In this document: positions 6,217-61,863 of the stretch, one piece after another
Layout of the letters: each line of letters begins with the position of its first letter
Numbering within the stretch: the stretch's first letter is position 1
NCBI GenBank assembly: GCA_035276765.1
Contig: DATELH010000002.1
Location: 235,671-299,670 of the forward strand
DNA length: 64,000 nt
Reading direction: 5' to 3'
From: Candidatus Saccharimonadales bacterium
Lineage (GTDB): Bacteria > Patescibacteriota > Saccharimonadia > Saccharimonadales > UBA4665
The notes under the pieces: model-generated
Seen by the model: the letters and a program-made list of their open reading frames with translations, nothing else
The model's database searches: none
What the model was told of the DNA's origin: nothing
Position numbers and translations under genes: made by a program

Positions 6217-7107
6217 GTGACGCATATGACAAAGAAAGCTACCAAGACCACCACAAAAAAGCCTGCGCAAGCAGCATCTGCTACCAAAAAGAAACCGGCC
6301 CAAACGGCTAAGGCTAAAGCGCCCGCCCCTAAAAAACCAGCTGCGCAAAATGTTTTGCGCAAATCAGACCAATACGACGACCCAAGCTATAACTATCTGC
6401 ACTACTGGAATGGCCGTGACTACGAAAACGAGGCCGAGCGTATGGCGATCCGTCGCTTGCTCAAGGGCAAACACTTTAAGCACGCCACCGACATCGGCGG
6501 CGGTTATGGACGTTTGTGTATATTTTTGGAGCAGTATGCCGACAAAGTTACGTTGGCCGAACCAAGCCAGCAGCAACTCGACATTGCCAAAGACTTTTTG
6601 AAAGGCCACCCCGAAATCGACCGCAAGCTCATGCAAGCCGACGACATGAAGTTTAAAGACGGTTCGATCGACTTGCTGACCATGATCCGCGTGATGCACC
6701 ATTTGCCAAATCCTGCTACCGAGTTTTCAGAGATCGCCCGAGTGCTTTCCGATGACGGTTACGCAATTATCGAAGTGGCCAACTACGCCCATGGCCGCAA
6801 CCGGCTCAAGCACTTTTTGAAGGGCAGCAAACTGCCGACTGAACCTGTTGATATCCGTTCGGCCAAAAACATGCGTAAAGATGAAATTCCGTTTGTAAAC
6901 CACAATCCGCACACCGTTATCAGCCAACTCGGCCAGGCAGGCCTGAAGATTGAACGTGTACTTTCGGTATCAAACTTGCGCAGCCCTGGCATTAAAAAAA
7001 TAGTACCACGCGGCGTAATGCTCGCCGCTGAAAGCGTACTCCAACCAATGCTGGCCAGCAGCTTCTTTGGGCCGAGCGTATTTTTCTTGGTTCGTAAGGG
7101 CAAGTAG
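6217..7107 (+). CDS. Class I SAM-dependent methyltransferase with a Lys/Ala/Pro-rich N-terminal tail
   Basis: SAM motif I is DIGGGYGRL. The N-terminal ~45 aa are KKATKTTTKKPAQAASATKKKPAQTAKAKAPAPKKPAAQ. The start is ambiguous between GTG 6217 and ATG 6226. Confidence 0.8.
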   Translation: MTHMTKKATKTTTKKPAQAASATKKKPAQTAKAKAPAPKKPAAQNVLRKSDQYDDPSYNYLHYWNGRDYENEAERMAIRRLLKGKHFKHATDIGGGYGRLCIFLEQYADKVTLAEPSQQQLDIAKDFLKGHPEIDRKLMQADDMKFKDGSIDLLTMIRVMHHLPNPATEFSEIARVLSDDGYAIIEVANYAHGRNRLKHFLKGSKLPTEPVDIRSAKNMRKDEIPFVNHNPHTVISQLGQAGLKIERVLSVSNLRSPGIKKIVPRGVMLAAESVLQPMLASSFFGPSVFFLVRKGK

Positions 7108-7130
7108 TCTTTAGTATCAGGCGTGGACCT

Positions 7131-7224
7131 GTGAATACACTTCTTCGAGGCACACTCGGAAGCGCCGGTATGTTACTTTAGATCATACAAGACGACCATA
7201 TGTGCTGAGGAGAAGTGTATTCAC
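7131..7224. ncRNA. Candidate structured RNA element, copy 1 (unknown family; strand unresolved)
   Basis: A 14-bp outer stem GTGAATACACTTCT / AGAAGTGTATTCAC encloses the GCACA/TGTGC helix, the core GCACACTCGGAAGCGCCGG and an inner hairpin GTATG..CATAC. The same architecture and core occur at 60448..60542 with different stem sequences. Confidence 0.5.
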
Positions 7225-7264
7225 ATAGAAAAAAACAGAGAGCGAGTAAGGGTATACTGAAAAC

Positions 7265-9304
7265 ATGAGTGTTCATAGAGGGGAATTGACTGCGCTCAAA
7301 GGCGTTGGAGTGGAGATGGCAAAAAAGTTGGCGGGCTTAGGGGTTAAGACCGTCGAAGACTTAGTTACGTTTTTTCCGCGCCGCTACGACGATTACTCCA
7401 CTGTCACGGCGATCGCCCAGCTCAAGCCGGGACCGGTGACCATTAAGGCTACCATCAAGCAAGCCAAAGGCCGTTACGTGCGCCGGGGCATGCACATCAC
7501 TGAGGCAGCTGCAAGCGACGAGACGGGCAGTGTGCGTATCGTGTGGTTCAACCAGCCGTACCGCGAAACTTCGCTCAAAAAAGACCAGACCTATTACATC
7601 TCTGGCCAATTTGAGCTGAGCCACCAGCGACTGACAATCATGAATCCGTCAATTGAACTAGCCAGCGATTTTCCGGTGAATACAGCGCGGATTGTGCCGG
7701 TATACCGCGAAACCAAAGGTGTTACCTCGCGGCAAATTCGTAAGTTTGTGCAAGGGGCGCTCCCAGCGATTACACAGGCATCAGAAAGTTTGCCGGGCTG
7801 GATTGTGCGAGAGCACAAGCTGCTTTCGCGATCGGCGGCACTCAAAGCAATCCATTTTCCAGCGAGCGGTGTAGAGCTCGAAGCGGCGCGGCGGCGCTTG
7901 GGCTTTGAAGAAGTGTTCAGCCTAACTCTGGCCAGCCTGCTTAATAAGTACGAGCTATTGGCCGACAAGGCGTTGGCTATCCCGTTCAAAGAGCGCCTGG
8001 CTAAGATGTTCGTGTCGCATTTGCCCTTCACGCTTACCAATGCACAGCGCAAGGTCGTTTGGCATATCTACCAAGACATGACAAAAACGCAGCCCATGAA
8101 CCGCTTGGTTGAGGGCGACGTAGGCGCTGGCAAAACAGTGGTGGCGGCCATGGCGGCAGTGATGGCAATGGAGCAGGGATACCAAGTGGCGTTCATGGCG
8201 CCCACTGAGCTACTCGCCCGGCAACACGCCGAAACTATTTACAAGCTGCTGGAGCCGCTCGGGCTTGGTCATCAAGTTGGCTTGCTGGTAGGCGGGCTCA
8301 AACCAGCCGCCAAAACTGCAGTGCAACAACATATTGCAAGCGGCGACGTGCGGTTTTTGGTGGGCACGCAAGCACTCATCCAGGAAAAGGTCGATATGCA
8401 CAAGCTCGGCCTGGTGATTATCGACGAGCAACACCGCTTTGGTGTGGAGCAGCGCAAGGCGCTCATGGCCAAGGCTGGCCACATGCCGCACCTTTTGAGT
8501 CTAACGGCCACACCCATTCCGCGCTCGCTGGCGCTCACGTTGTATGGCGAACTGGATATTTCCGTGCTCGATGTAAAACCCGGCGGCCGCTTGCCGATTA
8601 TCACCAAAATTTGCTCGCCAGCTTCCCGCAAACAACTGTACGAAGAAATTACCGCGGAACTCAAAACCGGCCGCCAGATGTTTGTAGTCTGTCCACTTAT
8701 TACCGAGTCGTCGGCTATCCAGGCTAACTCCGCCGAAAAAATCTACGAGCAATTCCGCAAACGCGATTTTAAGGCGTGGCGTGTGGGCTTGTTGCACGGC
8801 AAAATGAAACCGGTCGAGAAAAACGAAATTATGGAACGGTTTGTGCGACATGAGCTTGATATTTTAGTTTCAACCACTGTGATTGAGGTGGGAGTAGATG
8901 TGCCGAATGCCAGTGTGATGCTCATCGAGGCAGCCGATCAGTTTGGATTGGCGCAAATCCACCAACTGCGCGGGCGGGTGGGGCGCAGCAGCGACCAAGG
9001 CTATTGTTACTTCATGATGAGCGACTCCAAGGCGCCGCCAAAACGCATTCGCGCGCTCGCCACCATCAGCGACGGCTTTAAACTAGCCGATCTCGACCTC
9101 GAACTTCGCGGCCCGGGAGCTATTTACGGCACAAGCCAACACGGCCCGCTTGATTTAAGAATTGCTAAATTAACAGATGTAAAGCTTATTGCCGAGGCTC
9201 GCAAAACCGCCCAAACTGCTATCGAACGCGGCGAAAACCTGCTACAATATCCAGTATTGTCCGAACGCGTTTCATTACTGCGCGCAGTTACCAACCTAAA
9301 CTAA
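7265..9304 (+). CDS. recG: ATP-dependent DNA helicase RecG
   Basis: 679 aa with Walker A GDVGAGKT, the DEQH box IIDEQHRFGV, QLRGRVGR, and an N-terminal wedge/OB region. Confidence 0.93.
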   Translation: MSVHRGELTALKGVGVEMAKKLAGLGVKTVEDLVTFFPRRYDDYSTVTAIAQLKPGPVTIKATIKQAKGRYVRRGMHITEAAASDETGSVRIVWFNQPYRETSLKKDQTYYISGQFELSHQRLTIMNPSIELASDFPVNTARIVPVYRETKGVTSRQIRKFVQGALPAITQASESLPGWIVREHKLLSRSAALKAIHFPASGVELEAARRRLGFEEVFSLTLASLLNKYELLADKALAIPFKERLAKMFVSHLPFTLTNAQRKVVWHIYQDMTKTQPMNRLVEGDVGAGKTVVAAMAAVMAMEQGYQVAFMAPTELLARQHAETIYKLLEPLGLGHQVGLLVGGLKPAAKTAVQQHIASGDVRFLVGTQALIQEKVDMHKLGLVIIDEQHRFGVEQRKALMAKAGHMPHLLSLTATPIPRSLALTLYGELDISVLDVKPGGRLPIITKICSPASRKQLYEEITAELKTGRQMFVVCPLITESSAIQANSAEKIYEQFRKRDFKAWRVGLLHGKMKPVEKNEIMERFVRHELDILVSTTVIEVGVDVPNASVMLIEAADQFGLAQIHQLRGRVGRSSDQGYCYFMMSDSKAPPKRIRALATISDGFKLADLDLELRGPGAIYGTSQHGPLDLRIAKLTDVKLIAEARKTAQTAIERGENLLQYPVLSERVSLLRAVTNLN

Positions 9305-9307
9305 AAC

Positions 9308-10132
9308 ATGTATTCAGGAACAACACTAACGCCCAACTCCGGCAATTTTGTCGGGGCGCACCAGAAAATTGACCGCTTGGCTCGCAAGTCGCTGCAAGCG
9401 CTTATAAAAACGCAGCACAAATTCCCGGGCATCCGAACGATTTTGCATTTTGAAGGTGCCGGTGGTCCAGACGCCATTAAGCGCAAAAGTCCGGCCGTGG
9501 ACGAGCCCTGGCACTATTTTAACCCTTTTGACGAAGCCGACAACCAGTTGCTTGATATTATCGTTGACCACCACAAAAAGTTAGTAAAGGCGCTCAGGGA
9601 GCGCGATGACGTGCGTGCCGCCTTCGAGGCAGCCTGGATGGCGCACGCCTTGGTTGACGGCCTGACGCCGGCGCATCATTATCCGTACGAAGAAAAATTA
9701 GTGGAGTTGCGTGGTGGCGAGGGTTTGGAAAGCCGTACCACCCTCAAAGAAAAAATGTTCATGCCCGGCGAAACGCGCCGCGAGCGCATGAACAAAAACT
9801 GGAAAATGTGGGGCGCGAAGGGTTTGTTTTCGACCCACTTTATGTTTGAATGGGGCGTGTCGGCAATTTTGGCCCCGTTGTCGCTCAAGAACGCGAAAAT
9901 CAACGAAGACGACATCGCCGAAATGCTGGCACTAGACATCCCCGAATGGTTCACCAAAAAAGCACGTGAGGTAGCCGGTATGGGCATGTACGACGCGTAC
10001 TACCGCTACGGCTGGACGATCCCGCTCGCCAGACAGGTGCGCAGCCAGTTGGCGCCGCTACTGGTGCGATCGGTGACGCTGGCATGGTACCGAGCCCTTC
10101 ATGAAGCAGGAACTTTAGAGGAGAAACAATGA
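9308..10132 (+). CDS. Hypothetical protein, zinc-dependent phospholipase C / P1-nuclease-fold-like
   Basis: 274 aa. The spaced motifs AHQKIDRLA, GAGGPDAIK, WHYFNP and AAWMAHALVDGLTPAHH resemble the His/Asp metal ligand pattern of the zinc phospholipase C superfamily. Recognised by eye only. Confidence 0.45.
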   Translation: MYSGTTLTPNSGNFVGAHQKIDRLARKSLQALIKTQHKFPGIRTILHFEGAGGPDAIKRKSPAVDEPWHYFNPFDEADNQLLDIIVDHHKKLVKALRERDDVRAAFEAAWMAHALVDGLTPAHHYPYEEKLVELRGGEGLESRTTLKEKMFMPGETRRERMNKNWKMWGAKGLFSTHFMFEWGVSAILAPLSLKNAKINEDDIAEMLALDIPEWFTKKAREVAGMGMYDAYYRYGWTIPLARQVRSQLAPLLVRSVTLAWYRALHEAGTLEEKQ

Positions 10133-10677: not shown

Positions 10678-10761
10678 GGGGACGTGGTGAAATGGTAGAC
10701 ACGCTAGCCTTAGGAGCTAGTGCCGCAAGGCGTGAAGGTTCAAGTCCTTTCGTCCCCACCA
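10678..10761 (+). tRNA. tRNA-Leu (anticodon UAG), CCA encoded
   Basis: Hand-folded cloverleaf with acceptor GGGGACG/CGTCCCC, anticodon loop CTTAGGA, long variable arm TGCCGCAAGGCGT, T-loop TTCAAGT and a 3' ACCA. Confidence 0.9.
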
Positions 10762-14196: not shown

Positions 14197-14267
14197 GCTT
14201 GCATTGTACCATCCTGGCGTGACCCAAGGGTAGCCAAAGCCAATCCGATCTGTTACAGTAGATACTT

Positions 14268-15563
14268 ATGCAAGTATCTAAAAAGAAACTATCCGACACA
14301 AATGTCCAACTTACCATCGTGGCCGACGCTGCGTTGCTGGCGGGCGCCAAAGAGGCGACGTTGCAGCACTTTGCGCGAACCGTCAAAGTACAAGGCTTTC
14401 GCGAAGGCAAAGCGCCGCTCAACCTTGTAGAAAAACAAGTAAGTCCCGAAAGTCTGCAAACTGAATTTTTGGAACACGCTATCAATCTGCTTTATTCGCA
14501 AGCGGCAAATGAGCAAGATTTGCGCCCGGTCGCGCAGCCTCAAGTAAAAATCACCAAGTTTGCGCCATTCGAGGTGCTCGAGATTGAAGCAGAGGTAGAG
14601 GTGCTCGGCGACATCCAATTGCCCGACTACAAAAAGCTCAAGATTACCCACAAAGCAGTCAAAGTGACCGACAAAGACGTAGACGAGGTTATTGCGCAGC
14701 TGCAAAAGCGGGAAGCCCAGAAGACGCCGGTAGAACGAGCAGCTAAAACTGGCGACGAAGTATGGATCGACTTCGCCGGCGTGGACGCCAAAACCAAAGA
14801 GCCAATCAACGGCGCCGACGGCAAAGACTATCCGTTGATGCTCGGTAGCAATACCTTTATTCCGGGCTTTGAAGACAATGTGGTCGGCATCAAGGCTGGC
14901 GAAGAAAAGACCTTCACCATTAAGTTTCCAAAAGATTACGGCGTAAAAGCCCTCCAAAGCAAGGACGTTGCTTTTACGGTCACCGCCAAAAAAGTTGAAG
15001 AGTTAGTTGAACCCAAGACCGACGACGCACTGGCCGCCAAGGTTGGCCCGTTCAAAACACTTGCCGAGTTAAAAGCCGACATCAAAAAGCAGCTAGCCGT
15101 CGAGCAAGAGACGCAAGCCGACCGTGAATTCGCTGACGAAATGGTGCTAGCTATCGCCAAAGATACAAAGGTGGCCATCCCTGCAGCGCTGATCGACGAG
15201 CAGCTCGACCGTATGGAGCAGGACGAAAAACAAAACCTGCTGTACCGCGGCCAAACCTGGCAAGAACACCTAAAGGCTGAGGGCGTCACCGAAGCCGAGC
15301 ATCGTGCCAAAAACAAGCCCGACGCCGAAATGCGCGTGAAGGCCGGTTTGGTCCTCACCGAAATTGCCGACCGCGAAAAGATTACAGTCACGCCCGAGGA
15401 ACTCGAGGTTCGGATGCAGTTACTGCTTGGGCAATATCCCGATCCACAAATGCAAGTCGAACTTAAAAAGCCTGAGGCTCGCCGCGAAATCGCCTCACGT
15501 ATGAAGAGTGAAAAAACCCTCGACAAACTCAAAAGCTACACAGCCAAAACTAAAGCCGCATAA
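14268..15563 (+). CDS. tig: Trigger factor
   Basis: 431 aa with an N-terminal ribosome-binding region (FREGKAP), a central FKBP-like domain (GDEVWIDFAGV...IPGFEDNVVG) and a C-terminal arm domain. Confidence 0.9.
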   Translation: MQVSKKKLSDTNVQLTIVADAALLAGAKEATLQHFARTVKVQGFREGKAPLNLVEKQVSPESLQTEFLEHAINLLYSQAANEQDLRPVAQPQVKITKFAPFEVLEIEAEVEVLGDIQLPDYKKLKITHKAVKVTDKDVDEVIAQLQKREAQKTPVERAAKTGDEVWIDFAGVDAKTKEPINGADGKDYPLMLGSNTFIPGFEDNVVGIKAGEEKTFTIKFPKDYGVKALQSKDVAFTVTAKKVEELVEPKTDDALAAKVGPFKTLAELKADIKKQLAVEQETQADREFADEMVLAIAKDTKVAIPAALIDEQLDRMEQDEKQNLLYRGQTWQEHLKAEGVTEAEHRAKNKPDAEMRVKAGLVLTEIADREKITVTPEELEVRMQLLLGQYPDPQMQVELKKPEARREIASRMKSEKTLDKLKSYTAKTKAA

Positions 15564-31062: not shown

Positions 31063-31079
31063 GATTTCTCCTTATAATA

Positions 31080-31108
31080 AAAATCCCCGGAGTTGTTCCG
31101 GGGATTTT
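31080..31108 (-). terminator. Intrinsic terminator of the putative Ile attenuator
   Basis: Minus strand reads AAAATCCCCGGA-ACAAC-TCCGGGGATTTT followed by TATTAT. It lies immediately 5' of the SD of the dehydratase-like gene. Confidence 0.75.
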
Positions 31109-31138
31109 GACTAGCTAAAATTTTAGTATGCCATTAAA

Positions 31139-50342: not shown

Positions 50343-50375
50343 TCGCTTCTCGAACTTGCGGTTATACAAAAACCA

Positions 50376-50404
50376 AAAACCTCTCGGAATTCCGGGAGGT
50401 TTTT
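50376..50404 (+). terminator. Intrinsic terminator after rpsI
   Basis: AAAACCTCTCGG-AAT-TCCGGGAGGTTTT. The pairing can extend outward (TTATACAAAAAC / GTTTTTGTATAA). Confidence 0.75.
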
Positions 50405-50417
50405 GTATAATCAAATC

Positions 50418-55646: not shown

Positions 55647-55721
55647 TGGAGCCGAAGACGAGGATTGAACTCGTGACCCCCGCCTTACCATGGCGGTGCT
55701 CTACCACTGAGCTACTTCGGC
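55647..55721 (-). tRNA. tRNA-Thr (anticodon GGU), CCA encoded
   Basis: Hand-folded, with acceptor GCCGAAG/CTTCGGC, anticodon stem CCGCC/GGCGG, loop ATGGTAA and T-loop TTCAATC. Confidence 0.9.
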
Positions 55722-55758
55722 ACATACAATTCTTCGAAGCTCGAGTTTCATATGGTAT

Positions 55759-55843
55759 TGGTGCAGGGTGAGGGATTCGAACCCCCGAAGGCTGAGCCAG
55801 ATGATTTACAGTCACCCGTGTTTGACCGCTTCACTAACCCTGC
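55759..55843 (-). tRNA. tRNA-Tyr (anticodon GUA), long variable arm, CCA encoded
   Basis: Hand-folded, with acceptor GCAGGGT/ACCCTGC, anticodon loop CTGTAAA, variable arm TGGCTCAGCCTTC and T-loop TTCGAAT. Confidence 0.9.
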
Positions 55844-55866
55844 GTGTTAAAGTTCCGGGCAAGGCT

Positions 55867-55942
55867 TGGAGCCGACAGAGGGATTCGAACCCACGACCCG
55901 CTGTTTACAAAACAGCCGCTCTAGCCACTGAGCTATGTCGGC
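55867..55942 (-). tRNA. tRNA-Thr (anticodon UGU), CCA encoded
   Basis: Hand-folded, with acceptor GCCGACA/TGTCGGC, anticodon stem GCTGT/ACAGC, loop TTTGTAA and T-loop TTCGAAT. There is one U-U mismatch in the T stem. Confidence 0.88.
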
Positions 55943-57931: not shown

Positions 57932-59146
57932 TTACACCTGCATTCCTTTCTCGCTCAGCCGAAACTTAAGGTCGTGATACGCATTCATAAACGCCACAAA
58001 AGCGTCGTACGGATTTTCGTACGGGCTGAAATAGGCATGGATGTCGCCGTCGTTGAACCATTTTGTGCACATGTAGTAAAAGTGGTCGGAGGTTTGCAGC
58101 TTGCGCCAGTCTTCGATGAGCGTCAGGTCGCCCGTGTGCAGGATTTTGTCTTGCAAAGCGTATAATTCGGTGATGGCCGATGCCTGCATGCTGTTACCCA
58201 GCCAGGCGCTCAGGTCGCGCTCGGTGTCCGCCCAGGTGATGGTTTGCGGCACGTCTACGTGGTCAACCGGCTCAAAATGGTCGATTACTTCGCTCACCGT
58301 CATAAAAGTATGACCTCGTGTTTTGAGCCACTGCTTTGGCAAGTGCTCCAAAAAGTCAAAAATGCCAGAGTCGCGCCACTGGTGTTCGCCAAATGTTTCG
58401 TAGTCCATGAACAAGTTAAAGTTGGTGGCGTCGCCGCTTTCACTGAGCCAATGCGAGAATTTGTCGGCGGTCAACGGCCACTCGCTCCAGTTGTGATCGC
58501 CAAAGCGAAAAGCGATGTCGTCGCTAAGTTTGTAGTTTTTCATGAGCAGCCGGATGTTGTTTGTGTATGCCGGCTGGTATACAAAGTTCGGGCTGCGCCA
58601 GCCCAATACTTTGTCCCAGCCTTCGGTGAGAATGCCTTTGTAACCGGCTTTGTCCGCCCAATAGGCGAGGTCGTTGTTGTACGAAAGTTCAGTGTTGCGG
58701 AAGACTTGCGGCGTCTGACCAAACACTTCCTGCACTTTTTTGCGATGCATCTGCACTTGCGCTTCGAATTCGCTGCGCGAGTAAAAGAATGCCAGGCTGT
58801 GGTGATAGGTTTCGGCCACGATCTCGACGCGGCCAGTGCGCGTAAGCTCTTTGAAAGATTCCAGCACGTGCGGCGCCCAGCGCTCCAACTGTTCTATGAC
58901 GGTCCCGGTAATCGAAAGGCTCAACTTGAACTCGGGATGCTCGTTCAAAAGTTGCAGCAAGTGGCGGTTAGCTGGCAAGTACGATTTTTCGGCAACTTTG
59001 TGGATAATGCGCTCGTTGTTGGTGCGATCTTCGTAGGCGGCGTCGAAATAATTGTGGTCAACACCAGCGTCAAAAATGGTGTAATGCCGCACGCGAAACG
59101 GTTGATGTACGTGCATGTAAAACACGATCGCTTTTTGCTGGCTCAT
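57932..59146 (-). CDS. Glycoside hydrolase family 57 protein (alpha-amylase / alpha-glucan-processing)
   Basis: 404 aa with N-terminal FYMHVHQPFRV, ITGTVIEQL and DYETFGEHQW, typical of GH57. Confidence 0.75.
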   Translation of the reverse strand: MSQQKAIVFYMHVHQPFRVRHYTIFDAGVDHNYFDAAYEDRTNNERIIHKVAEKSYLPANRHLLQLLNEHPEFKLSLSITGTVIEQLERWAPHVLESFKELTRTGRVEIVAETYHHSLAFFYSRSEFEAQVQMHRKKVQEVFGQTPQVFRNTELSYNNDLAYWADKAGYKGILTEGWDKVLGWRSPNFVYQPAYTNNIRLLMKNYKLSDDIAFRFGDHNWSEWPLTADKFSHWLSESGDATNFNLFMDYETFGEHQWRDSGIFDFLEHLPKQWLKTRGHTFMTVSEVIDHFEPVDHVDVPQTITWADTERDLSAWLGNSMQASAITELYALQDKILHTGDLTLIEDWRKLQTSDHFYYMCTKWFNDGDIHAYFSPYENPYDAFVAFMNAYHDLKFRLSEKGMQV

Positions 59147-60357
59147 GCCGCTACTCCTTGCAAGTGCTGGTCGTACACTTTGAACAATTTGTCGGCCGAG
59201 GTATCCCAGGACAGCTTTTCGAACTCGTGATAGGCGTTTTTGTGCAGCTCATCGCGCAAGGAATCGTTTTGCATGACCGCAGTAATTTTGTTGGCCATTT
59301 CGGCCACGTCCCAAAAATCAACCTTGAGGCAGTTGAGCATCACCTCGGAAACGCCGGATTGCTTGCTTACCAGCGCTGGCGTGCCGTAGCCCACAGCTTC
59401 GAGGGCGGTAAGTCCGAATGGTTCTGAGATGGACGGCATAACAAAGAGATCGGCAATGCCATACGAATCGCGCCAATGCTTGCCGCGCTGAAACCCAGTA
59501 AACACGACATTTTTGGCGATGCCGAGATCGGCGCTTAATTGCAGCAACTCAAAATATTGTTCACCACTGCCAACGATGAGAAAAATAGTTTTAGGCACGC
59601 GTGCGATGACTTCTTTGGCGGCGCGCAGCAAGTTGGGCAAACCCTTTTGAATGGTAAGGCGCCCCACGTTCGTGACCACGCGGTAGCCTTGAGCGCGCAT
59701 AGCGGTGAGGTATTTATAGGAATTGTCACTGTCGAGCATTTGCATTTCGTTTGGGTTGATGCTGTTATGAACCACAGCAATTTTGTCGGCAGGAATGTTG
59801 TACTCGCGTACGATGGCACGTTTGGTGTGTTCGCTCACCGCAATTATTTGGTCGGCCATCAAGACCGCTAGCGATTCAATTTCGCGCACCAAGGGGTTGC
59901 CGCCGTACTCGTGGCCGGCGCGGTCGGCTTCGACGGAGTGGAAATGGACGACCAGCGGACAGCCTTTGTATTGCTTGACGCGCAAAGCCGCGCGAAAGGT
60001 GAGCCAGTCGTGCGCATGCACCACGTCGAACTCGCGCCCGCTTCCGCGCACCATGCTATCGACGGCGAGTTCGTACATGCGCTGCTGGCCATGGATATCG
60101 ACCCATTCTGTACGTCCATCGCTGTAGATGTATTTGTAGCTGTCGTAGGCGATGCCGGACTTTAAAACTTCGGCAACGCCTTGCGGGTGTGCCGCGGTGA
60201 CGGTCATGAAGCCAATGTTATGCTCGGCTTTGTAGGGCAGCACAAACTCAATATCGGCACCTTTTTTTGCGAGCGACTTACACAGCTCGTAGCAAGCGAC
60301 CCCGAGTCCACCACTATTATTGGGAGGTAGCTCCCACCCGAGCATCAAGATCTTCAT
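59143..60357 (-). CDS. Glycosyltransferase, glycogen-synthase-like (GT-B fold, GT4/GT5)
   Basis: 404 aa with MKILMLGWELPPNNSGGLGVACYEL, HAHDWLT and the C-terminal EPFGLTALEA motif. It overlaps the GH57 gene by 4 nt. Confidence 0.75.
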   Translation of the reverse strand: MKILMLGWELPPNNSGGLGVACYELCKSLAKKGADIEFVLPYKAEHNIGFMTVTAAHPQGVAEVLKSGIAYDSYKYIYSDGRTEWVDIHGQQRMYELAVDSMVRGSGREFDVVHAHDWLTFRAALRVKQYKGCPLVVHFHSVEADRAGHEYGGNPLVREIESLAVLMADQIIAVSEHTKRAIVREYNIPADKIAVVHNSINPNEMQMLDSDNSYKYLTAMRAQGYRVVTNVGRLTIQKGLPNLLRAAKEVIARVPKTIFLIVGSGEQYFELLQLSADLGIAKNVVFTGFQRGKHWRDSYGIADLFVMPSISEPFGLTALEAVGYGTPALVSKQSGVSEVMLNCLKVDFWDVAEMANKITAVMQNDSLRDELHKNAYHEFEKLSWDTSADKLFKVYDQHLQGVAA

Positions 60358-60391
60358 CGCCCTCTTTTGGTTACATTGCTCTTCTAGCCCG

Positions 60392-60421
60392 ATTATAATA
60401 CGTTTTACGCCTTAAACACAA
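60392..60421 (-). promoter_or_regulatory. Putative promoter of the GT-GH57-GH15 operon (TTGTGT-18-TATAAT)
   Basis: Minus strand has TTGTGT at 60421..60416, an 18-nt spacer, and TATAAT at 60397..60392. The SD AGAGGG precedes ATG 60357. A plus-strand TATAAT at 60394..60399 overlaps it. Confidence 0.4.
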
Positions 60422-60447
60422 CCGTTTTATAGCATAGTCTGCTGCTT

Positions 60448-60542
60448 GTGGGAGCGTCTTTTCTAAAGCACACTCGGAAGCGCCGGCATGCTATAAAAAG
60501 CATGCAAGGTGACCCGTATGTGCCGTGAAAAGACGCTCCCAC
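60448..60542. ncRNA. Candidate structured RNA element, copy 2 (unknown family; strand unresolved)
   Basis: A perfect 16-bp outer stem GTGGGAGCGTCTTTTC / GAAAAGACGCTCCCAC encloses GCACA/TGTGC, the core GCACACTCGGAAGCGCCGG and an inner hairpin GCATGC-TATAAAAA-GCATGC. It is the homologue of 7131..7224. Confidence 0.5.
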
Positions 60543-60556
60543 AGTCCGTACGCACT

Positions 60557-61771
60557 CTATTTAGTTAAGCGTTCGAGGGCGAGCTCAAAAGCGGCTTGTT
60601 TGAGCCCTAAGCCGTTCTTTTCGGCATACTTGAGCATGTCTTTGGTGGCCGGCACCAAAATATCTGTTAACTTTTTGTTTACTTCCGCCTCGCTCCAATG
60701 CGCAGCCTTTTGGTTTTGGTCCCATTCCAAGTACGACACGATTACGCCACCGGCGTTCGCGACTACATCGGGCAAAATGTCTTTCCCGTGTTTGAGCAAG
60801 TACACTTCCGCAGCCTTGCTGACGGGGCCATTAGCAAGCTCGACGATAATGTCGGCCTGGACTTGGTCCATGTTGGCTTCGACCACAGCGTCTTCGAGTG
60901 CGGCAAGCACCAGAATGTCAGCCTTGGCACTAATGATCGCTTCGGGTGCGGCAGTCGGTGTGCCTTTGAGATCGGTAAGTTCTTCGGGGCGGGGCACAGC
61001 GCCAGCTTTGCCTTCAAACTTCTCGACATCAATGCCATCTTGCTTGGCCCAGGTATTTTTGCTATTTGCAATGGCGACTAGTTTGATGTTCGGGTAATCT
61101 TTTAACACTTTACCGAAAAAGTAGCCCACGTTGCCGAAGCCCTGCATAGCTACGGTGAGCGGTTTGTCGAGCAGACCTTTCGCGCGCAAATACTCAACCA
61201 AGGCGATCACGCCGCCACGGCCGGTTGCCGCCTCGCGGCCTTCTGAACCTCCGTTGTCCATGGATTTGCCCGTAAAGCTACCTTTGTCGGGTGCGCCGAT
61301 GGTTTTTTCATATTCGTCAACCATCCAGTCTATGATCTCGGCGTTGGTGTTTACGTCGGGCGCGGGGATGTCCTTGCCCGAGCCAATGTGCGGCGCCAGG
61401 TGCTTCGCGTAGTTTCGAGCTAGCATTTCCACCTCGGCCTTGCTGAGCGCGCGCGGATCAACCGCTATGCCGCCCTTACCGCCGCCCATGGGAATGTTGA
61501 CGGCTGCCGTTTTGAGGCTCATAAGGGTGGCGAGCGCCCGCACTTCGTCGATGTTCACGTTGGGATGAAAGCGGATGCCGCCCTTGAATGGTCCAAGGCG
61601 ATTGTTGTGCTGCACGCGAAAAGCTTGGTATTTTTTGCCGCCCGTTTCGACTTCGAAGACGTGTTCGGCTTCGGCCTCGATTAAGGCTTCGATGGTTTTT
61701 TCGTCATATCCTAATCTTTGAGCCGCCTCCCGGATAGTGGCTTGGGCGGTCGCTAGCATTGATTTACTCAT
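60557..61771 (-). CDS. gdhA: Glutamate dehydrogenase (Glu/Leu/Phe/Val dehydrogenase family)
   Basis: Motifs KGGIRFHP, PMGGGKGG and a GFGNVG Rossmann motif. I prefer the start at MSKSML... (61771) because TATACT (61784..61779) lies 7 nt upstream. The track start is 61855. Confidence 0.9.
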   Translation of the reverse strand: MSKSMLATAQATIREAAQRLGYDEKTIEALIEAEAEHVFEVETGGKKYQAFRVQHNNRLGPFKGGIRFHPNVNIDEVRALATLMSLKTAAVNIPMGGGKGGIAVDPRALSKAEVEMLARNYAKHLAPHIGSGKDIPAPDVNTNAEIIDWMVDEYEKTIGAPDKGSFTGKSMDNGGSEGREAATGRGGVIALVEYLRAKGLLDKPLTVAMQGFGNVGYFFGKVLKDYPNIKLVAIANSKNTWAKQDGIDVEKFEGKAGAVPRPEELTDLKGTPTAAPEAIISAKADILVLAALEDAVVEANMDQVQADIIVELANGPVSKAAEVYLLKHGKDILPDVVANAGGVIVSYLEWDQNQKAAHWSEAEVNKKLTDILVPATKDMLKYAEKNGLGLKQAAFELALERLTK

Positions 61772-61863
61772 GCCAACCAGTATAGCGCCGGCCCGCCAGC
61801 CTCCGCACCGTTTTAAACACAACGGTTTTTCGGAGGACCAGCCTCGTCCTCCCACGATCTGCT

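Follow-up and report, generated by a model that had tools for sequence, protein, structure and literature searches.

Two hairpins with an invariant core

The 64,000-nt stretch of a Candidatus Saccharimonadales genome analyzed here (contig DATELH010000002.1, positions 235,671 to 299,670; hereafter the window) carries two copies of a long palindromic hairpin, each in the spacer between two tandem genes. Copy 1 is located between the genes for a class I methyltransferase (6217-7107, plus strand) and RecG (7265-9304, plus strand), with its conserved core in the sense orientation. Copy 2 is located between the genes for glutamate dehydrogenase (60557-61855, minus strand) and a GT4 glycosyltransferase (59143-60357, minus strand), with its core antisense; the core is on the plus strand in both. 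These hairpins belong to a real family that is undescribed in Rfam: its structure is conserved, the whole unit is present or absent at orthologous sites with clean junctions and no duplication, and its copies sit in unrelated contexts. Our tentative reading, held with somewhat less than even confidence, is that it is a low-copy, non-autonomous palindromic insertion element of an undescribed family, with a conserved recognition core, akin to REP and ERIC elements and to the ends of IS200/IS605.

A first-pass annotation, made from the letters of the window alone, had reported two structured elements with an identical 19-nt core and judged this match to be beyond chance. Both elements are where it placed them, with each stem one T-A pair longer than described (Table 1). 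Even with up to three mismatches tolerated, the 19-mer GCACACTCGGAAGCGCCGG occurs only at these two places; its expectation by chance is 0.02, and two matches were found in 0 of 100 shuffled sequences. Both copies fold far better than shuffled sequence, with a minimum free energy of -40.8 kcal/mol (z = -6.9) for copy 1 and -58.3 kcal/mol (z = -10.8) for copy 2, and they are the sole long-range inverted repeats of such size and spacing in the 64 kb. Scanning the entire window with a covariance model, filters disabled, returned only copy 1 (97.7 bits) and copy 2 (94.7 bits), the runner-up scoring 15.7 bits (E = 0.13). Their identity to each other, about 80%, is confined to the core. A 13/14 match to the core (CTCGGAAACGCCGG) also occurs some 1.1 kb from copy 2, within the coding sequence of the glycosyltransferase (59344-59357); with no hairpin and a model score of 9.3 bits, it is most likely due to chance.

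Structure is conserved across four copies

Two further members of the family were found outside the window. The third copy (L049, contig OEHO01002344.1) was the sole true match in a metagenome scan with the 17-mer ACACTCGGAAGCGCCGG, which gave 58 matches, 57 of them by chance in high-GC DNA; one of these (L013) had seemed a candidate but was rejected as a family member after it folded like shuffled sequence (z = 0.03). The fourth copy (L102, approximately 14197-14325, minus strand) is in assembly GCA_040383985.1, whose RecG is 80% identical, and was reached by a model search of DNA fetched around orthologues of the flanking genes in related genomes; in about 170 kb from six such genomes it was the only addition. 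The covariance-model search that the first-pass annotation had called for thus extended the family by L102, with L049 coming from the 17-mer, and within the window it returned copies 1 and 2 only. About 10 kb past the right edge of the window (L106) added no copy, and the 236 kb of clade DNA searched in all holds four distinct copies.

All four share a common layout which comprises, from the outside inward, a paired outer stem, an internal loop, helices P2, P3 and P4, and a variable hairpin, P5. In both window copies, P2 is GCACA/UGUGC followed by a CU/UA loop and P3 is CGG/CCG followed by an AAG/AC loop; P4 is CGCC/GGUG, with GACG instead in copy 1. Family-wide, the core reads P2 GCAC(A), loop CU/YA, P3 CGG/CCG, loop AAG/AC and P4 CGCS/SGYG. 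The outer stems are copy-specific, almost perfectly paired and 14-30 bp long, with TG...CA ends and a purine-rich internal loop beside them. The first-pass annotation had described outer helices that are unrelated in sequence yet paired in both window copies, and this was borne out, with 14 bp (plus U.G and C-G) in copy 1 and 17 bp in copy 2; the arms of copy 1 are likewise unrelated to those of all three other copies. Also present are the helix GCACA/TGTGC, the inner hairpins GTATG/CATAC and GCATGC(T)/(A)GCATGC, and the conserved 3' strand, in the form AAG..GA.CC..TATGTGC, all of which it had listed. Likeness reaches about 10 nt past GCACA/TGTGC on each side (UUCU.RAG / GAGGAA), and the TG...CA termini are also common, being TGTG..CACA in the two window copies and TTGCC..GGCAA in L049 and L102.

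The 19-mer is the same in copy 1, copy 2 and L049. L049 combines it with an unrelated outer stem of 15 bp (TTGCCCTCAGCCATT/AATGGCTGAGGGCAA), a P5 of UGUGC/GCACA and a purine internal loop arranged as in copy 1. In L102 the core is the variant GCAC-CTCGGAAGCGCG, so that GCAC-C stands in place of GCACAC, and P4 is CGCG/CGUG instead of CGCC/GGYG, a compensatory C-G to G-C exchange; P4 and P5 form one continuous helix, and the outer stem has 30 bp with one U.G pair. A compensatory U-A to C-G change also distinguishes P5 of copy 2 from that of copy 1. In copy 1, the 3' strand of the core is conserved less than the 5' strand. The apical loops had been described as unrelated, which applies to copy 2 but not to the family: the loop core UACUUUAGA of copy 1 recurs in L049 and L102. 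Small open reading frames within the element are limited to two that are not conserved, a GTG frame of 17 codons in copy 1 and a spurious one of 65 amino acids in L049.

In a model-guided alignment of the four copies, 96% of pair cells hold standard pairs and 13 of the 32 pairs show double-sided changes; these counts are descriptive, since four sequences are too few to test covariation statistically, and DNA palindromes of any family would produce the same counts. None of 500 column shuffles reached the observed pairing values, sliding the partner strand by 1-3 columns lowered pairing to 30-55%, and RNAalifold independently predicted the same fold. The outer stem, with its plainly unrelated sequences, accounts for most of the double changes. 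The core contributes one compensatory change and two G.U pairs in P4, along with three covarying pairs and a G.U intermediate in P5. The earlier proposal of a real family whose architecture is kept while its stems change therefore holds for the two added copies as well, both of which keep the pairing.

Orthologous sites either hold the whole hairpin or lack it

Relatives with flanking proteins 80-86% identical have empty sites at both window positions. At site 2, the spacer between the glutamate dehydrogenase and glycosyltransferase genes is 110-120 nt in L097, L098 and L100 (glycosyltransferase 83-85% identical), compared with 199 nt in the window, and copy 2 is absent from the orthologous spacer of these three relatives and of L099. 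The promoter-proximal block AAAACGGTTGTG...CTATAAT...AAAAGAGGGCGATG is kept in L097, L098 and L100. When 60447-60543 is removed from the window, the junction reads ..GCGTACGGAC/AGCAGC, against CCGTACGGCC/AGCCGC in L097 (the slash marks the place of the hairpin), with 13 of 16 positions identical by manual count on the alignment; the probability of so close a match arising by chance was roughly estimated to be on the order of 1e-3 or below. At site 1, L011 is without the element and reads ..AGTATCAGG..GCGGAC/TATAG, and copy 1 is also missing from L010. The junctions lie exactly at the foot of the hairpin, and what is present or absent is the whole hairpin, including its copy-specific arms. With the junctions fixed by the empty sites, no direct repeat that could represent a target-site duplication was found beside either window copy.

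The first-pass annotation had dismissed a mobile DNA repeat, a view at odds with a hairpin that is present or absent as a whole at orthologous sites. Insertion explains two hairpin-exact differences without flanking direct repeats more easily than precise deletion does. We considered two other origins for the palindrome. Insertion of a conserved core into a pre-existing host hairpin is ruled out by empty sites that contain neither arm. The arms are also not inverted copies of flanking DNA, as the empty sites lack them, and they have no other match in the 236 kb or in viral contigs.

The motif GCGT(N0-2)GGAC adjoins both window hairpins (7121-7129 and 60544-60553), with the core facing opposite ways relative to it, and is not adjacent to the hairpin in L049 or L102; it could be a target preference or a coincidence. 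Other flank features were noted at these two TTGCC-type copies. Their flanks and termini resemble each other (CGATT..TGCC ... GGCAA.AGC), with CGATTC directly before the TTGCC end in L049. In L102, a tandem duplication, ATTTCGATTC ATTTCGATTG (14326-14345), adjoins the 5' end of the copy, and its final TTG forms the first three bases of the hairpin.

Copy 1's place is occupied differently in L010, where an unrelated gene for a 402-aa product (8750-9958, orthologous to window 7108-7264) stands between the methyltransferase gene and recG. The product is secreted-protease-like and has no Pfam hit, an N-terminal hydrophobic segment and a TAAHC motif like that of trypsin-type serine proteases; genes of this type are found in the closest relatives (RecG 86% identical). 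The methyltransferase-recG spacer seems to be a hot spot for insertions and deletions.

Searches for known families and further copies

Against Rfam 15 at the gathering threshold, the whole window yielded four tRNAs only: a cluster of three (55650-55942, minus strand) beside rpmG (L33), and one with a long variable arm (10678-10758, plus strand). At E <= 10, the four copies gave sub-threshold matches of 10-24 bits against cut-offs of 40-107, with no family recurring between copies; most were to hairpins of the miRNA-precursor type, along with weak, unrelated ones beside copy 1 (Cyano-1, RT-2). Models of riboswitches, signal recognition particle RNA, 6S RNA, Y-RNA and self-cleaving ribozymes matched none of the four copies. 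The failure of the first-pass annotation to place the element in a known RNA family was thus confirmed by the scan, no family being reached at the gathering score.

Wider searches used exact patterns that are too narrow, as the L102 variant shows. A scan of GTDB representative genomes with the pattern ACTCGGAAGCGCCGGN{8,38}AAGNNGACC returned a single chance match, in Solirubrobacterales coding DNA; the pattern was too strict in hindsight, since L102 has neither CGCCGG nor AAG, and the result says little about the spread of the family. Five scans of viral contigs (three core patterns and two outer-arm sequences) gave chance matches only, none with the fold, and showed no sign that the variable arms are phage-derived "spacers".

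Two Logan contigs, L009 (1-69, from the species of the window) and L103 (6730-6777, from the species of GCA_040383985.1), both break off within the element, at model positions 20 and 22, immediately 5' of CUCGGAAG. Assemblers end contigs in this way at repeats, and these ends suggest either further copies in each genome that share at least 30 nt of core but differ upstream or a hairpin-related drop in coverage. As far as seen, the family is rare, 96-130 bp in length and confined to a narrow Saccharimonadales clade.

Gene neighborhood, promoters and terminators

The copies occupy four unrelated intergenic contexts, in either orientation to their neighbors: L049 lies between the divergent rpsT and a gene of unknown function, and L102 lies between convergent genes, in addition to the two tandem pairs of the window. 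The recG locus of the window is also found on ENA and Logan contigs, and its RecG has a 100% identical counterpart in a "Candidatus Saccharimonadales bacterium" MAG. Since conserved -10 boxes stand between the element and the start codon at both window sites (Table 1), neither copy is part of a 5' leader; a riboswitch or other 5'-untranslated regulator of recG or the glycosyltransferase gene was rejected on this ground, copy 2 being antisense to its neighbors as well. A promoter scan found a promoter-like site before the sense strand of copy 2 only (GTTACA-18-TATAAT, 60370-60399, plus strand), where it overlaps the palindromic -10 box of the neighboring gene, and none in copy 1, L049 or L102.

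The terminator scan, together with direct reading of the flanks, found no terminator with a U-tract or T-run at any of the four copies on either strand, although ordinary hairpin-plus-T-run terminators exist elsewhere in the window (31075-31113 and 50374-50405). An intrinsic terminator was rejected accordingly, as no copy has a U-tract directly after its stem.

Several further observations concern the surroundings of copy 2 and the window at large. All relatives conserve the block AAAA(C/T)GGTTGTG(C/T)TT (60414-60428; minus strand, AAAACGGTTGTGTTT), which precedes the glycosyltransferase -10 box by about 15-20 nt, while the remaining spacer is not alignable; the block may be a -35 or operator region for a glycogen-type gene cluster. 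Genes for Ku and LigD (nonhomologous end joining) lie a few kilobases from the cluster of DUF998, glutamate dehydrogenase and glycosyltransferase genes in L098 (1971-5162) and L100 (1822-5016). The window genome's matching stretch past the right edge (L106, 237-6378) has seven consecutive open reading frames without a Pfam hit. Composition profiles were dominated by coding-strand effects and were uninformative with regard to replication-strand bias.

Table 1. Coordinates of the two hairpins and of the sites beside them in the window
Feature	Position	Strand	Details
Copy 1, complete hairpin unit TGTG...CACA	7130-7225	+	96 nt; inverted repeat I1
Copy 1, insertion-site flank GGCGTGGACC	7120-7129	+	kept in the L011 empty site
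Copy 1, outer stem, 5' arm	7130-7146	+	pairs with 7209-7225: 15 Watson-Crick pairs, then U.G and C-G
Copy 1, GAG of the purine internal loop	7147-7149	+	tandem G.A/A.G with GA 7207-7208; G7149 pairs with U7206
Copy 1, invariant 19-nt core GCACACTCGGAAGCGCCGG	7150-7168	+	5' strands of P2 (GCACA), P3 (CGG) and P4 (CGCC), loops CU and AAG
Copy 1, inner hairpin P5 GUAUG/CAUAC, apical loop UUACUUUAGAU	7168-7188	+	fold
Copy 1, 3' strand of core, AAGACGA-CCATATGTGC	7189-7205	+	one C deleted, one C.A mismatch
Copy 1, outer stem, 3' arm	7209-7225	+	inverted repeat and fold
recG -10-like box TATACT	7253-7258	+	between copy 1 and recG start; conserved in relatives; sequence comparison only, promoter scan negative at its thresholds
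Glycosyltransferase -10 box, palindromic ATTATAAT	60392-60399	.	between copy 2 and start codon; CTATAAT in relatives
Copy 2, complete hairpin unit TGTG...CACA	60447-60543	+	97 nt; inverted repeat I2
Copy 2, outer stem, 5' arm	60447-60463	+	17 perfect pairs with 60527-60543
Copy 2, invariant 19-nt core	60468-60486	+	exact 19-mer match
Copy 2, inner hairpin P5 GCAUGCU/AGCAUGC, loop AUAAAA	60486-60505	+	fold
Copy 2, 3' strand of core, AAGGTGACCCGTATGTGC	60506-60523	+	alignment
Copy 2, outer stem, 3' arm	60527-60543	+	inverted repeat and fold
Copy 2, insertion-site flank GTCCGTACGCACT (reverse complement ..GTGCGTACGGAC)	60544-60556	+	with the other flank, matches uninterrupted L097

Proposed readings: a palindromic insertion element or a structured RNA

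Ends that are variable but perfectly paired, a center that is invariant and asymmetric, and the absence of a duplication together point to recognition of a folded single strand and not of duplex terminal repeats. We propose that mobility accounts for the presence and absence of the hairpin, and that the folded strand would be recognized by an enzyme encoded in trans, outside the window. The non-palindromic core would set the polarity of the hairpin, as irregularities in imperfect hairpins do for Y1/HUH transposases (IS200/IS605 and REP, or repetitive extragenic palindromic, elements). Such an enzyme might cut and join at the foot of the stem, for which reason no target duplication would be left, and only those element lineages with both hairpin and core intact would survive, which could explain why the stems change by compensation while the core is fixed. 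Transcribed within a neighboring mRNA, the element would form a very stable RNA hairpin (-40 to -90 kcal/mol), and a hairpin of this kind could block 3' exonucleases or read-through, as those of REP and ERIC can. In addition to the empty sites, this proposal is supported by a patchy, low-copy spread, with four distinct copies in 236 kb and one extra exact 17-mer match in the metagenome collection, by the four unrelated contexts, by the position of the window copies upstream of the -10 boxes, by the missing U-tracts and the want of a consistent promoter, by the shared termini, by the contigs that break off within the element, and by the ability of both strands to fold, as expected of a DNA palindrome; the two strands fold nearly equally well, and nearly all pairs in the outer stems of all copies are Watson-Crick.

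Several findings weigh against an insertion element. A Pfam scan of 20 open reading frames from the window found no transposase, and there is none among the precomputed Pfam calls beside the other copies. Copies are few, and the two that share a genome are old relatives and not the product of a recent burst. The opposite orientation of the core relative to GGAC at the two window sites is awkward for strictly strand-specific single-strand transposition. A classical MITE (miniature inverted-repeat transposable element) was rejected, as the arms are unrelated among the four copies save for TG..CA or TTGCC..GGCAA and no target duplication exists. Precise deletion from the relatives could also account, though less easily, for the empty sites. 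Finally, some features distinguish the strands: the core-sense strand is the more stable in 4 of 4 copies (RNA ddG of 3.0, 0.8, 2.1 and 6.7 kcal/mol), a U.G pair beside the purine loop is kept in 3 of 4, P2 has tandem G.A/A.G pairs beside it in two copies (copy 1 and L049), and the sense strand alone has purine-rich internal loops. Like the conserved apical loop and the G.U intermediates of P4 and P5, such features are more typical of selected RNA than of transposon ends. The stability advantage has the same direction with DNA parameters, and 8 cells are G.U on the sense strand, compared with 4 A.C cells that would be G.U on the opposite strand. Although weak, the strand evidence is consistent and mildly favors the sense strand.

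These same features are the basis for regarding the element as a structured noncoding RNA (ncRNA), the interpretation of the first-pass annotation and the chief rival, to which we give a lesser but substantial chance. The sense strand would then produce a trans-acting or protein-binding hairpin from a small number of paralogous copies subject to rapid gain and loss; the internal and apical loops would be its functional surface, and the long basal stem would need only to pair. Every helix is kept in the four copies while sequences change, the C-G to G-C exchange in P4 comes with G.U intermediates, P5 passes through A-U/G-C and G-C/G.U/A-U series, and the loop UACUUUAGA is conserved in three genomes; having no Rfam match, such an RNA would be new. 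However, four sequences are too few for covariation statistics, a DNA palindrome of any kind gives equal pair counts, perfect Watson-Crick stems of 14-30 bp are unusual among selected RNA helices, and the antisense strand folds within 1-7 kcal/mol of the sense strand. A sense promoter-like site is missing in 3 of 4 copies and a terminator in all, the operon around copy 2 runs antisense to it, and no gene upstream of L049 shares its direction. Moreover, close relatives lack the element at these sites, and what they lack corresponds exactly to the hairpin. Of the earlier interpretation, the conserved structure stands, with mild backing for RNA from the sense-strand features, but the evidence does not bear out an ncRNA in place of the DNA-level repeat that it had set aside. 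Nothing was found to point to the ribozyme that it had suggested. A small self-cleaving ribozyme, be it of a novel class or a divergent form of twister, hairpin, pistol or hatchet, is very improbable: only general features fit (a compact multi-helix hairpin, conserved internal loops and no known family), ribozyme models fail to match any of the four copies at a cut-off as loose as E <= 10, the predicted fold has neither a pseudoknot nor a multi-helix junction, the context is atypical of bacterial ribozymes and the mobility pattern can be explained without catalysis.

Position relative to genes raises another explanation, that the hairpin is a cis-acting element of the 3' end of the upstream gene, serving in either orientation as a terminator without a U-tract or as an mRNA-stabilizing hairpin, with the shared core reflecting common descent. 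Three of the four copies begin within about 35 nt of a stop codon (23 nt past that of the methyltransferase gene for copy 1, 14 nt past that of the glutamate dehydrogenase gene for copy 2, and about 15-35 nt past that of a HAD-hydrolase gene for L102), all four hairpins are extremely stable on both strands, and REP and ERIC elements are known to act in this manner. Yet L049, between divergent genes, has no upstream gene end, no copy has a U-tract even though canonical terminators exist in the window, and relatives manage the same gene ends without the hairpin. A 19-nt invariant asymmetric core and a conserved apical loop are also left unexplained, and we consider this explanation improbable. 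A similarly slim chance attaches to a mobile structured RNA module, with an RNA that binds protein or is catalytic formed by the core and apical loop, and with the 14-30 bp stem as a functional variable part; the stem could be, for example, a processing substrate or a programmable duplex, and the RNA or a DNA copy of it could spread as a blunt hairpin. If this were true, the element would represent a new class of bacterial RNA element specific to the candidate phyla radiation (CPR), and not a relative of REP elements or MITEs.

For a palindromic insertion element, our preferred reading, the interest lies in part in the host: few descriptions of interspersed palindromic elements exist for Saccharibacteria and other CPR bacteria, which have small genomes that are generally regarded as repeat-poor. 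The usual pattern of conservation is also reversed, with variable but perfectly paired ends around an invariant, asymmetric center. If a partner enzyme exists, the two would offer a compact means of studying structure-directed DNA transposition in an ultra-small genome; should the sense RNA be what acts, it would be a new ncRNA class. Either way, the family is a marker of recent genome change in the clade and a source of assembly breaks.

Comparison with known systems

Among systems that act on folded DNA, integron attC sites resemble the family in that the fold is conserved over the sequence, the terminal hairpin is variable, unpaired bases mark the active strand and recombination uses single-stranded DNA. 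They differ in having conserved outer ends (RYYYAAC / GTTRRRY) and in occurring as cassette arrays beside an integrase, whereas the outer ends of the present family are variable. We rejected an attC assignment, given ends of TGTG..CACA or TTGCC..GGCAA, no R''/R' boxes, and copies that are solitary between housekeeping genes. The IS200/IS605 group (IS608, ISDra2) and the related PATEs likewise have neither target duplication nor terminal inverted repeats, and irregularities in their imperfect hairpins give polarity; a possible dependence on a short flanking target is a further likeness, since GGAC adjoins the two window copies. Consistent with this type, our copies have no target duplication, a hairpin end and clean junctions at its foot. 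Those elements, however, carry two separate small hairpins, one at the left end and one at the right end, in a fixed orientation to the target, in contrast to one large hairpin whose core is opposite relative to GGAC at two sites and for which no TnpA was found.

The MITEs ERIC, Correia (NEMIS) and RUP are palindromic intergenic insertions of about 100-150 bp that are polymorphic for presence and absence and are transcribed with their neighbors, and in ERIC the best-conserved part is central, as it is here. Presence/absence polymorphism was indeed found at site 1 (L011, L010) and site 2 (L097, L098, L099, L100). Copies of those MITEs, however, can be aligned over their full length, share terminal inverted repeats and have a target duplication (TA or other), while the copies described here share only TG..CA (or TTGCC..GGCAA) ends, have no duplication and differ wholly in their stems.

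Parallels in behavior may also be drawn with REP elements and REPINs, which are mobilized by RAYT proteins of the Y1/HUH type: short extragenic imperfect palindromes that are recognized as folded single strands, leave no target duplication and are non-autonomous. Like the present family, they are mostly intergenic and near gene ends; they persist for long periods in a lineage, and their RNA hairpins stabilize upstream mRNA. REP elements and REPINs are nevertheless 20-40 nt long with a GTAG/CTAC head and are similar within a genome, where tens to hundreds of copies occur near a RAYT gene, whereas the present units are 96-130 nt long and low in copy number, with unrelated arms, an asymmetric internal core that alone is conserved, and no RAYT gene in the DNA available. 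With no GTAG head and two copies in 64 kb that are about 80% identical over the core only, they were not assigned to the REP elements. These comparisons also bear on the choice between DNA and RNA. REP, ERIC and Correia elements are mobile DNA that also acts in the form of RNA hairpins, and the mobile-element and structured-RNA readings of the Saccharimonadales hairpin are likewise not exclusive.

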